In this document: piece after piece, positions 3 to 1,290 of the stretch | Position numbering within the stretch: position 1 is the stretch's first letter | Layout: each line of letters opens with the position of its first letter | Source of the DNA: an uncultured archaeon | GTDB lineage: Archaea; Asgardarchaeota; Thorarchaeia; Thorarchaeales; Thorarchaeaceae | DNA length: 32,000 nt | Direction of reading: 5' to 3' | Assembly: GCA_964354495.1 (NCBI GenBank) | Contig: CAYHAA010000014.1 | Location: 39,361 to 71,360, forward strand | Made by a program: the position numbers and the translations under genes | Notes under the pieces: model-generated | Database searches by the model: none | What the model was told of the DNA's origin: nothing | What the model saw: the letters and a program-made list of their open reading frames with translations, nothing else

Positions 3-1001
3 CATGCGATTCACTTCTATGCTCTTGCTGCTCCCGACTTCGTCTTTGGTCCCTTTGCTGATCCAGCAGTAAGAAATGTTGCAGCTGTCTTGAAGTATTT
101 GCCTAATGTAGCAGTACAAGCCATCAAGCTAATGGAGTTCGGTCAAGAACTCATTAAGACTGTTGGAGCCAAGGCAATCCACCCAACAACAGCCATCCCC
201 GGTGGTCAACTGACTCCTATGAAGGAGGAGGACCGTGATTACTGGCTTGGCAAAGTTCCTGAGATGCTTGAGAATGTCAATAAGACAGTAGAACTGGCAA
301 AGACTGTTGTCAACGCCTACATTGACGTTGTGACCAAGATCGCTGTTGTCCCGACATACTACATTGGACTGGCGAACAAAGGCGCTCTGGACATCTATGA
401 TGGAACAGTTCGTGTCATGGACCCGAAGGGCAAGATTGTCGCTGACTTCGAGCCCAAAGACTACACCAAGTACTACGGAGAGCACGTATCAGAGCATAGC
501 TATGCAACTCATATCTACTACAAGCCTGCAGGATACCCTGAAGGCATCTGGAGAGCCAACACTCTTGCACGATGCAATGTCGCAGACAAGATGGCAACTC
601 CCCTTGCTGATACGGCACTGAAGGAGATGAGAGGACTTATCGGAAGACCTTCGCACCACACCTTTGCGTATCACTATGCGCGAATAGTGGAGCTGGTGCA
701 AGCTGCTGAGTCGATCAAGAAGCTATTGGAAGACCCAGAGATTGTGAGCACCGATGTGAAGCTCTCAGATGTTGAACCGAAGGCCGGTGATGGTGTTGGC
801 ATTGTAGAGGCTCCACGAGGGACTCTTCTGCATAACTATGTGAGTGATGACAAGGGTATGCTTGTGAAGGCGAACCTTATCGTAGCTACAAACAACAACA
901 TCGCAGGTATTGAGAAGAGCCTCATGGTGGCTGCAAAGCAGATCTTTGAGGACAAGGCTCACGAGAGTCTGAAACTACCTGACCCAATGGTGAAGACCTA
1001 G
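3..1001 (+). CDS. vhuA: Group 3c [NiFe] hydrogenase large subunit (MvhA/VhuA type), 5'-truncated by the window edge; lacks the C-terminal DPCxxC motif
   Basis: The frame is open from base 3 (HAIHFYALAAPDFVFGPFADPAVRNV), upstream of the track start at 90. It carries typical large-subunit motifs (GAKAIHP, YHYARIVE, GVGIVEAPRGTLLHNY, ANLIVATNNN) and ends at TAG 999-1001 with no CxxC. Confidence 0.9.
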   Translation, partial: HAIHFYALAAPDFVFGPFADPAVRNVAAVLKYLPNVAVQAIKLMEFGQELIKTVGAKAIHPTTAIPGGQLTPMKEEDRDYWLGKVPEMLENVNKTVELAKTVVNAYIDVVTKIAVVPTYYIGLANKGALDIYDGTVRVMDPKGKIVADFEPKDYTKYYGEHVSEHSYATHIYYKPAGYPEGIWRANTLARCNVADKMATPLADTALKEMRGLIGRPSHHTFAYHYARIVELVQAAESIKKLLEDPEIVSTDVKLSDVEPKAGDGVGIVEAPRGTLLHNYVSDDKGMLVKANLIVATNNNIAGIEKSLMVAAKQIFEDKAHESLKLPDPMVKT

Positions 1002-1052
1002 AAAATGACCATACCTCAGGATTATAAAGCGGAGAAGGAAATGTGAAATATA

Positions 1053-1205
1053 GTGTCAGAAGAAATCCCTGAAGGAGTACTGAACCTCCTGGAAATGGTG
1101 GTTCGGTGCTATGACTGCTGACTATCATGCGGCGCTCATCTGGTCGTCGTCGACGATGAGGGTCGCGAGATAGTCAGGAAGGAGCTTGTGACCGGCGGCG
1201 GATGA
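1053..1205 (+). CDS. vhuU: VhuU-type selenocysteine-containing small hydrogenase subunit, 50 aa, UGA=Sec at 1119-1121
   Basis: Manual translation from GTG 1053: MSEEIPEGVLNLLEMVVRCYDC(U)LSCGAHLVVVDDEGREIVRKELVTGGG*. It supplies the LNLLEMxxRxYDxULSCxxH segment missing from the upstream large subunit. The UGA falls exactly on the first Ni-ligating Cys position. A GTGA SD-like element lies 6 nt upstream. Confidence 0.88.
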
Positions 1206-1290
1206 AGGCACGGCCCCAAAATCATGGGCCGAGTCTAACACACCCTGCAAAGGTGCGCTGGTCGCACTCCTTCCATCCTTTGTCCTTTTC
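1143..1290 (+). repeat. Copy 1 of a degenerate direct repeat (vhuU 3' end plus 3' UTR)
   Basis: cttgtgaccggcggcggatgaag (1185-1207) and tccttccatcct (1268-1279) recur 1168 nt downstream. Confidence 0.8.
1198..1248 (+). promoter_or_regulatory. Candidate SECIS hairpin overlapping the vhuU stop codon
   Basis: ATGA (1202-1205) is followed by an 11-position helix, AGGCACGGCCC (1206-1216) / GGGCCGAGTCT (1226-1236), with 10 pairs and one A.A mismatch. The loop CAAAATCAT contains an A-run 12 nt after the UGA. The 3' core reads AA rather than the canonical GA. Confidence 0.5.

Follow-up and report, generated by a model that had tools for sequence, protein, structure and literature searches.

The beginning of a 32,000-nucleotide stretch of Thorarchaeota DNA (hereafter the window, G000:C14:39361-71360, from a genome of 3.3 Mb in 51 contigs) carries the genes for the large subunit of a Vhu-type hydrogenase in two pieces, vhuA and vhuU. 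We consider it very likely that the large subunit is split and that its second piece, VhuU, is a peptide with a UGA-encoded selenocysteine (Sec), made with the help of a eukaryote-like SECIS (Sec insertion sequence) as well as a full Sec pathway. The finding is already known for Asgard archaea, with precedents in Lokiarchaeota (PMC4989117), in Thorarchaeia (PMC11227280) and in the M. maripaludis Vhu structure 9SFI. The value of the present case lies chiefly in annotation. Without vhuU the Hdr-linked hydrogenase of this genome seems broken, and with vhuU the genome would have a complete [NiFeSe] enzyme and a reason for keeping the whole Sec pathway. Public protein sets hold truncated forms of the peptide or forms in which the Sec codon is misread as W, and flagging vhuU improves Asgard metabolic reconstructions.

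Two genes for one large subunit

The window opens within vhuA, which starts 316 nucleotides (nt) upstream at G000:C14:39045. The part inside the window runs from 3 to 1001 on the plus strand, like all features of the locus described below; its frame is open from the window edge, it comprises the last 332 of 438 codons and it ends with the stop codon TAG at 999-1001. The gene codes for an F420-non-reducing (Mvh/Vhu-type) [NiFe] hydrogenase, of which it provides the large subunit. The N-terminal metal-ligand motif RICGICPIPHH is present, encoded upstream of the window, whereas VhuA (438 amino acids) has no C-terminal CxxC nickel-ligand motif. The best match among solved structures is 9sfi_g, a Vhu large subunit of 418 residues (E 1.8e-95, 314 residues aligned), and the alignment reaches residue 417 of 418, so that both proteins have the same end point. 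Similarly, the best NCBIfam match, NF041785 (VhuA), covers model positions 4-417 of 418, while fused MvhA proteins of 472-475 residues align with VhuA only to about residue 411-420.

The segment that VhuA does not have is found in vhuU, a gene of 50 codons at 1053-1205 with a GTG start and a TGA stop, provided that the TGA at 1119-1121 is read through. It encodes the motif YD-C-U-LSC-GAH, that is D-C-U-x-x-C-x-x-H, the C-terminal ligand pair, in a peptide that corresponds to the large subunit's C-terminal strand. The UGA at 1119-1121 is codon 23 and occupies the first Cys position of this nickel-ligand pair. It is preceded by Cys22 (TGC, 1116-1118), and the His of the motif is residue 29 (CAT, 1137-1139). 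After His29 comes a C-terminal extension of 21 codons (1140-1202) which is conserved in orthologues and resembles the FrhA extension in 3zfs_A.

Alignment places the VhuU peptide at residues about 423-452 of fused MvhA and on the C-termini of solved Mvh/Frh large subunits, with the UGA falling on the ligand Cys of DPCxxC in the solved enzymes. It also aligns to the 27-residue VhuU chain 9sfi_M, where the unknown residue X falls on the UGA; the chain starts at the position of VhuU residue 4-5 and its entity sequence ends one residue past the His. We scanned all six frames of the 3.3-Mb genome with the pattern [RK]x[YF]Dx[U/C]xxCxx[H/R] and found two sites only, vhuU and the C-terminus of a second hydrogenase. 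The latter, on contig C40, is unrelated (25 % identical) and has an ordinary fused C-terminus, DPCISCSAH. These two sites, the homologue matches and the 63 Asgard loci described next argue that the vhuU open reading frame (ORF) is not due to chance.

To follow the UGA across orthologues we compiled 66 loci with a vhuU-like ORF, consisting of 63 Asgard loci, two from Methanothermococcus and one deposited as Thermoproteota. TGA stands at the Sec codon in all 63 Asgard loci and in both Methanothermococcus loci, and in 66/66 overall. Entropy was computed for each codon position in the 52 loci without length change. Over the 22 codons before the UGA the mean column entropy is 0.52, 0.27 and 1.22 at positions 1, 2 and 3 respectively, and over the 27 codons after it the corresponding values are 0.62, 0.38 and 1.18. 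This pattern shows that the stretch after the UGA evolves as a protein-coding continuation of the frame before it.

A library-wide protein search found split homologues with Cys at the Sec position, namely P0004 (DCC) and, with other residues before the Cys, P0006 and P0009. The search also gave mis-annotated entries that read the TGA as W and run past the stop (P0002, P0003, P0007 and P0008) and entries truncated at ..RCYDC (P0012, P0013 and P0015). A Cys directly precedes the Sec position (DCU) in 63 of 63 Asgard VhuU, where Methanothermococcus VhuU (DPU) and fused MvhA/FrhA (DPC) have Pro. Since the Cys homologue P0004 keeps the extra Cys, this residue is a lineage trait that is not tied to selenium. 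A text search of Mariotti 2016 (PMC4989117) found no mention of the Cys-Sec pair. The invariant pair could form a selenenylsulfide at the [NiFeSe] site.

The two genes are divided by a spacer of 51 nt (1002-1052) with a purine-rich, Shine-Dalgarno (SD)-like stretch, GGAGAAGGAAATGTGA, at 1031-1046; a purine-rich GGAG/GGTG/GTGA motif is likewise found 6-10 nt before the vhuU start in orthologues. Across orthologues the spacer measures 11-55 nt, mostly 11-19 nt, and the relative frame of vhuA and vhuU is 0, 1 or 2 in 22, 14 and 21 loci respectively. Because spacer and frame vary in this way, vhuA and vhuU are separate genes and not a broken fusion. Here they share one frame, divided by TAG 999 and TGA 1044, which, judged from the orthologues, is a coincidence of this genome. 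TGA 1044-1046 is part of the GTGA motif and in frame with vhuU by chance only; this motif is found at positions -10, -9 and -7 in 12, 5 and 2 loci respectively, so that the frame of its TGA is not conserved.

The stop codon of vhuA is TAA in 29 and TAG in 28 of 57 loci and never TGA. This agrees with an argument already published (PMC4989117), by which the SECIS would recode a UGA within its reach. For vhuU the stop is TGA in 63/66 loci, and the base before it is always A.

Two further observations concern the spacer. An ORF of 13 codons from ATG 1005 to TGA 1044 lies in the vhuU frame and occurs only in relatives with a spacer of 45-55 nt. These relatives also share TATAAAG (1023-1029), some 27 nt ahead of the start codon of vhuU, and an internal promoter is conceivable.

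A first-pass annotation, made by a model from the letters of the window, had held that the large subunit stops at 1001 without its C-terminal CxxC, which our frame and motif check confirms, and that an ORF of 50 amino acids at 1053-1205 supplies the segment. The TGA at the first ligand position, His29 and the 21-residue tail that it described are all found at the coordinates it gave. It had also expected standard gene callers to miss the peptide, as proves to be the case: database entries either break off at ..RCYDC or have W at this codon. Its proposal to look past the UGA in orthologues has been rewarded, with a conserved sequence that bears a coding signature and a UGA in all 63 Asgard loci, and the UGA/Cys alternation that it suggested searching for is seen in more distant split peptides that carry Cys at the Sec position (P0004).

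SECIS element and selenocysteine machinery

A eukaryote-like SECIS module spans 1192-1261 at the end of vhuU. We aligned the 3' regions of 48 Thorarchaeial sequences (alignment A1) and derived the structure with RNAalifold and explicit pair counts. The lower helix, formed by 1192-1197 with 1256-1261, is 90 % paired with double changes in five of its six pairs. Directly 5' of the upper helix stands the AUGA core (1202-1205), which is invariant in the 48 sequences and contains the vhuU stop codon at 1203-1205. The upper helix itself (1207-1216 with 1226-1235) has ten positions including one A.A mismatch, and it is 91 % paired with double changes in eight of nine tested pairs. It is closed by an A-rich apical loop of 9 nt, CAAAAUCAU, at 1217-1225, in which the AAA is invariant or almost invariant across A1. 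The 3' core at 1237-1238 is AA here and GA in the other 47 sequences, and it is followed by a GNRA-like side hairpin at 1242-1254 which is 98 % paired. As a control we slid the 3' partners by 1-3 columns, and pairing dropped to 21-47 %.

The start of the element lies 84 nt downstream from the UGA in 52/66 loci, and 96 nt downstream where a 4-codon insertion is present. A search with a model built from the 48 Thorarchaeial vhuU SECIS elements (model R1) scores the vhuU SECIS of the window at 54.7 bits (E 1.6e-12). It has the make-up of the published type I lokiSECIS, with an upper helix in the range of 7-15 base pairs and at most two mismatches, a loop in the range of 8-20 nt with an A-rich beginning, and a GA or AA core, either of which the published models allow.

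An Rfam scan of the window at gathering thresholds gave no match, and an Rfam scan of 950-1450 at an E-value threshold gave chance matches only (STnc420, mir-200) and no SECIS family. Folding of the single sequence 1203-1372 was not significant (z -1.28), and support for the SECIS structure comes from the comparative data only. An alternative third hairpin at 1255-1265 (GCG/CGC) was dropped, being 73 % paired compared to 90 % for the lower helix. In this family the vhuU SECIS takes the form of a three-way junction, in which the GNRA-like hairpin separates the 3' core from the lower helix's 3' strand. The final codons of vhuU (T-G-G-G) double as the 5' strand of this helix, and this may account for the conserved end of the tail. 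Downstream of the SECIS, a pyrimidine-rich tract, CUCCUUCC..UUU, at 1267-1290 is conserved in orthologues (A1 columns 82-100) and is likely to be the transcript end.

The genome encodes the machinery with which such an element would work. The genes for SelB (277 bits) and SepSecS (453 bits), the tRNA-Sec (54.8 bits, anticodon TCA) and a PSTK-like gene, which is convergent and adjoins the tRNA-Sec, all lie within 4.3 kb on contig C7. A single SelD scores over its cut-off (392 bits). It makes up the C-terminal half of a frame of 743 codons (G000:C15:about 36900-39300, minus strand) and carries Cys, not Sec, in its GxGCxCK region (..GLGCACK..). By eye from the translation, the N-terminal half of this frame is like a NifS-type aminotransferase (cysteine desulfurase / Sec lyase). 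One gene for a HycI-family protease is present at G000:C6:23858-24181. Model R1, which is specific to the vhuU type and may miss other SECIS types, found only the vhuU element and a copy after cysS in this genome, and within the reach of such vhuU-type searches vhuU is the sole selenoprotein gene found.

The first-pass annotation had named the Sec machinery as a test of its claim, and tRNA-Sec, SelB, SepSecS, a PSTK-like gene and SelD are indeed all there. Its literature statements, that Methanococcales encode vhuA plus vhuU and that Lokiarchaeota have VhuU, are correct (PMC4989117). Its reading of the UGA as Sec in a [NiFeSe] enzyme gains support from the machinery, the conservation and the covarying SECIS, all of them sequence data. 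On these data we infer that the UGA at 1119-1121 is decoded as selenocysteine.

Taken together, these results suggest the following mechanism. VhuA would contribute the N-terminal metal-ligand pair and the separately translated VhuU the C-terminal pair. Sec-tRNA(Sec) would be made by PSTK and SepSecS from selenophosphate and delivered by the Sec-specific elongation factor, with the eukaryote-like SECIS, beginning 84 nt downstream, directing Sec to the UGA at 1119-1121. The gene's own UGA stop inside the AUGA is presumably too near the SECIS for recoding and would lead to termination. After metal insertion a HycI-type endopeptidase probably trims the 21 residues past His29, a cleavage predicted from the general [NiFe] maturation rule, and the remaining selenopeptide of 29 residues would stay bound to VhuA within the [NiFeSe] site. 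Electrons from H2 would reach the Hdr-like flavoprotein complex by way of VhuG and MvhD.

Public RNA data offer a weak hint of expression. Contigs from three metatranscriptome libraries cover vhuU, one of them with the whole SECIS, of this organism or of close relatives. They span 1049-1267 at most and cover no vhuA before 910, the uncovered parts being uninformative; DNA carry-over is possible, and the contigs come without strand, ends or level. None of the sequencing runs searched contained at least half of the sampled words.

Alternative readings and copies of the SECIS module

Several observations weigh against a split selenoprotein hydrogenase at this locus. VhuA scores 503.7 bits where the equivalog cut-off of NF041785 is 800, and the best NCBIfam match of the VhuU peptide, NF041786 (VhuU), gives 54.7 bits where the cut-off is 70. 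The VhuG and VhuD matches are likewise under their equivalog cut-offs. For VhuU the query carried Cys in place of Sec, which lowers the score. Judged from their high cut-offs, the VhuA and VhuU models are presumably built on Methanococcales, which would lower the scores here. The PSTK-like gene (143 bits) is under its cut-off. vhuU starts with GTG where ATG is usual, the aligned start being ATG in 46/66 orthologues. The AA of the SECIS 3' core is unlike the GA of the 47 relatives, including the nearest one (L079, 98 % VhuA identity), and could mark a weakened element; AA is probably tolerated, being the published form in Lokiarchaeal VhuU. Finally, the same RNA module also follows genes without a Sec codon, such as cysS, and the module alone is thus no proof of Sec decoding.

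This last point and the departure of the 3' core from the GA of close relatives are what favour a reading in which the UGA does not encode Sec. The UGA would then either terminate translation, giving a 22-residue peptide, or specify another residue, and the RNA would be a general K-turn element of 3' ends. Such a peptide would, however, be without both metal ligands. Moreover, conservation and third-position wobble persist for 27 codons past the UGA, and a complete Sec pathway is kept in a genome in which vhuU is the only selenoprotein gene found. Furthermore, vhuU itself stops at a UGA, which therefore does not serve as a sense codon in general, and the stop of vhuA, a gene that the element can reach, is never UGA. 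We regard this reading as very unlikely.

A decayed gene would explain the locus otherwise: a once-fused mvhA would have acquired nonsense mutations at TAG 999, TGA 1044 and TGA 1119, with the ORF as an untranslated remnant. The three pieces do lie in one frame in this genome, and decaying vhuU fragments do occur in related genomes (L107, L108). Decay is nonetheless hard to reconcile with an arrangement kept in 63 Asgard loci while spacer and frame vary, with codon-position conservation on either side of the UGA, with the presence of an SD-like motif and start codon where the alignment places them, with a covarying SECIS and intact Sec machinery, and with the same split in a solved Vhu complex. 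Its probability is close to nil. It is scarcely more plausible that VhuU is longer than we propose, with 66 residues from ATG 1005 and two Sec via TGA 1044, or that the 13 codons preceding TGA 1044 form a regulatory leader ORF. ATG 1005 stands 3 nt past the vhuA stop in the vhuU frame, and the nearest relatives L079, L024 and L061 have a comparable in-frame layout. Most orthologues, however, have no room for either form (spacers of 11-19 nt), the homologous GTGA is one base out of frame in L021 and the upstream peptide is not conserved. Fused MvhA has no extra segment between its VhuA-like and VhuU-like parts, and the first residue of the solved VhuU chain corresponds to residue 4-5. We therefore retain the split large subunit with a single Sec peptide of 50 codons.

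The copies of the SECIS module deserve a description of their own. The second full copy in this genome lies at G000:C1:677394-677443 on the minus strand (L096:1501-1550, minus strand) and is scored at 48.3 bits by R1. It begins 16 nt past the TAA stop of cysS, a gene without an in-frame TGA, and has all parts of the module, namely both helices (lower and upper), the AUGA, a UAAAG loop, the GA and a side hairpin with GCAA. With the filters of R1 switched off, a diverged copy is found after cysS in 8 of the 24 genomes of the genus (the others being at L113, L114, L116, L117, L120, L124 and L135). These copies lie 13-44 nt past cysS, which ends in TGA in three of the eight genomes. They keep the AUGA, the AAA loop, the GAC, the GCAA hairpin and, via compensatory changes, the ACCAGC/GCUGGU lower helix.

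Further copies occur at L099, L107, L108 and L109 (genomes G011, G007 and G002 of the same genus), where they follow a PEPCK-like C-terminus and an ORF family with ..LFQGEQD.RDALGI... At L107 and L108 a fragment of the vhuU tail is retained without the rest of the gene, which suggests that these copies are relics of vhuU 3' duplications. On a contig of wetland DNA, window positions 1200-1279 recur as an exact second copy at a distance of about 4.1 kb from the 3' end of a vhuU gene. The copies of the module look like descendants of vhuU 3' duplications.

The element after cysS may not be a mere relic of such a duplication. It may be regulatory, for example by tying the expression of CysRS to selenium or to the status of the Sec-specific elongation factor (EF-Sec), or it may recode the stop. 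We hold it rather unlikely that the module has a second use after cysS or, separately, that a selenenylsulfide of the DCU motif protects or gates the [NiFeSe] site.

Genomic context and comparison with known systems

The genes directly upstream, read from the 8 kb 5' of the window, are in order an HdrC-like gene, an HdrB-like gene, two HdrA-like ORFs, mvhD (PF02662), an ORF of 80 codons, vhuG (PF01058) and vhuA. An hdrCBA-mvhD-vhuG-vhuA-vhuU operon has its 3' end at this locus and stops after vhuU. The partner subunits of the enzyme are present, with the VhuG small subunit and VhuD/MvhD as best NCBIfam matches along with the HdrA-, HdrB- and HdrC-like ORFs. The downstream genes encode an AsnC-type regulator (start 1370), an SSB-like OB-fold protein, a TetR regulator, a methyltransferase and an HpaB-family enzyme.

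We considered two upstream genes as further selenoprotein candidates and rejected both. The HdrA-like gene consists of two adjacent ORFs of 433 and 584 codons in one frame (L093:3027-6086, upstream of the window), and the stop between them (plus 3 nt) is not TGA. MvhD is a Cys form.

A homologue search with the hydrogenase gene gave relatives of at most 98 % identity, nearly all in metagenome-assembled genomes (MAGs) of Thorarchaeota. The more distant ones are in MAGs of Jord-, Frey-, Hel- and Lokiarchaeia type, and the nearest outside Asgard is Methanothermococcus. Four VhuA paralogues that are 67-79 % identical (L059, L069, L070 and L071) have no vhuU within 330 nt downstream; that of L070 is in the same MAG as L043, which does carry vhuU. 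Some Loki-type loci have vhuA and vhuU about 1.5 kb apart (L086).

Among known systems, Asgard VhuU is the closest. Mariotti et al. 2016 (PMC4989117) described Lokiarchaeota VhuU.1 with a lokiSECIS, an AUGA/stop overlap and an AA variant of the 3' core. Huang et al. 2024 (PMC11227280) reported the FrhA/MvhA/VhuU family in Thorarchaeia and 227 Sec-using Asgard genomes, and a 2026 review lists MvhA/VhuA/VhuU. The locus of the window shares with Asgard VhuU (PMC4989117, PMC11227280) a peptide of some 50 residues, encoded after vhuA and with one Sec, which is predicted in the present case. It also shares the SECIS with AUGA, helix, A-rich loop and GA/AA at the gene end, the AUGA containing the UGA stop. 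The lower stem of the [U/C]GG_C[C/U][A/G] type reported for the Thorarchaeial frhA/vhuU family (PMC11227280) fits here as well, as do the loop features described for it. Nothing essential differs. The present case is set apart by its AA core, the only one among the 48 Thorarchaeial sequences, by its GTG start and by an apical loop that begins CAAAA where G[U/G]AAA is usual.

The Methanococcales VhuA/VhuU (M. voltae, M. maripaludis) have the same split point, Sec at the first ligand position, as predicted here, and the partners VhuG, VhuD and Hdr. 9SFI is a cryo-electron microscopy structure of the M. maripaludis Hdr-Vhu-Fwd assembly containing VhuADGU (PMC13518236). Compared to these, VhuA here is about 47 % identical and has about 17 extra C-terminal residues, and the motif is DCU in all Asgard loci and DPU in Methanothermococcus. 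The SECIS of Methanococcales is of the GAA_A type instead of AUGA/GA, and MvhD and HdrA here are Cys forms.

The fused Cys-type MvhA (5ODC of Methanothermococcus thermolithotrophicus, 7T2R) belongs to the same fold family and is collinear in sequence, with VhuA covering residues about 104-420 and VhuU residues about 423-452. It differs in being one polypeptide with Cys for Sec, for which no SECIS is needed. The bacterial periplasmic [NiFeSe] hydrogenases (1CC1, 2WPN) are similar in having Sec for the first Cys of their C-terminal ligand pair, as predicted here. As distant matches (E about 1e-06) they belong to another hydrogenase group, with an unsplit subunit and a bacterial SECIS within the coding region.

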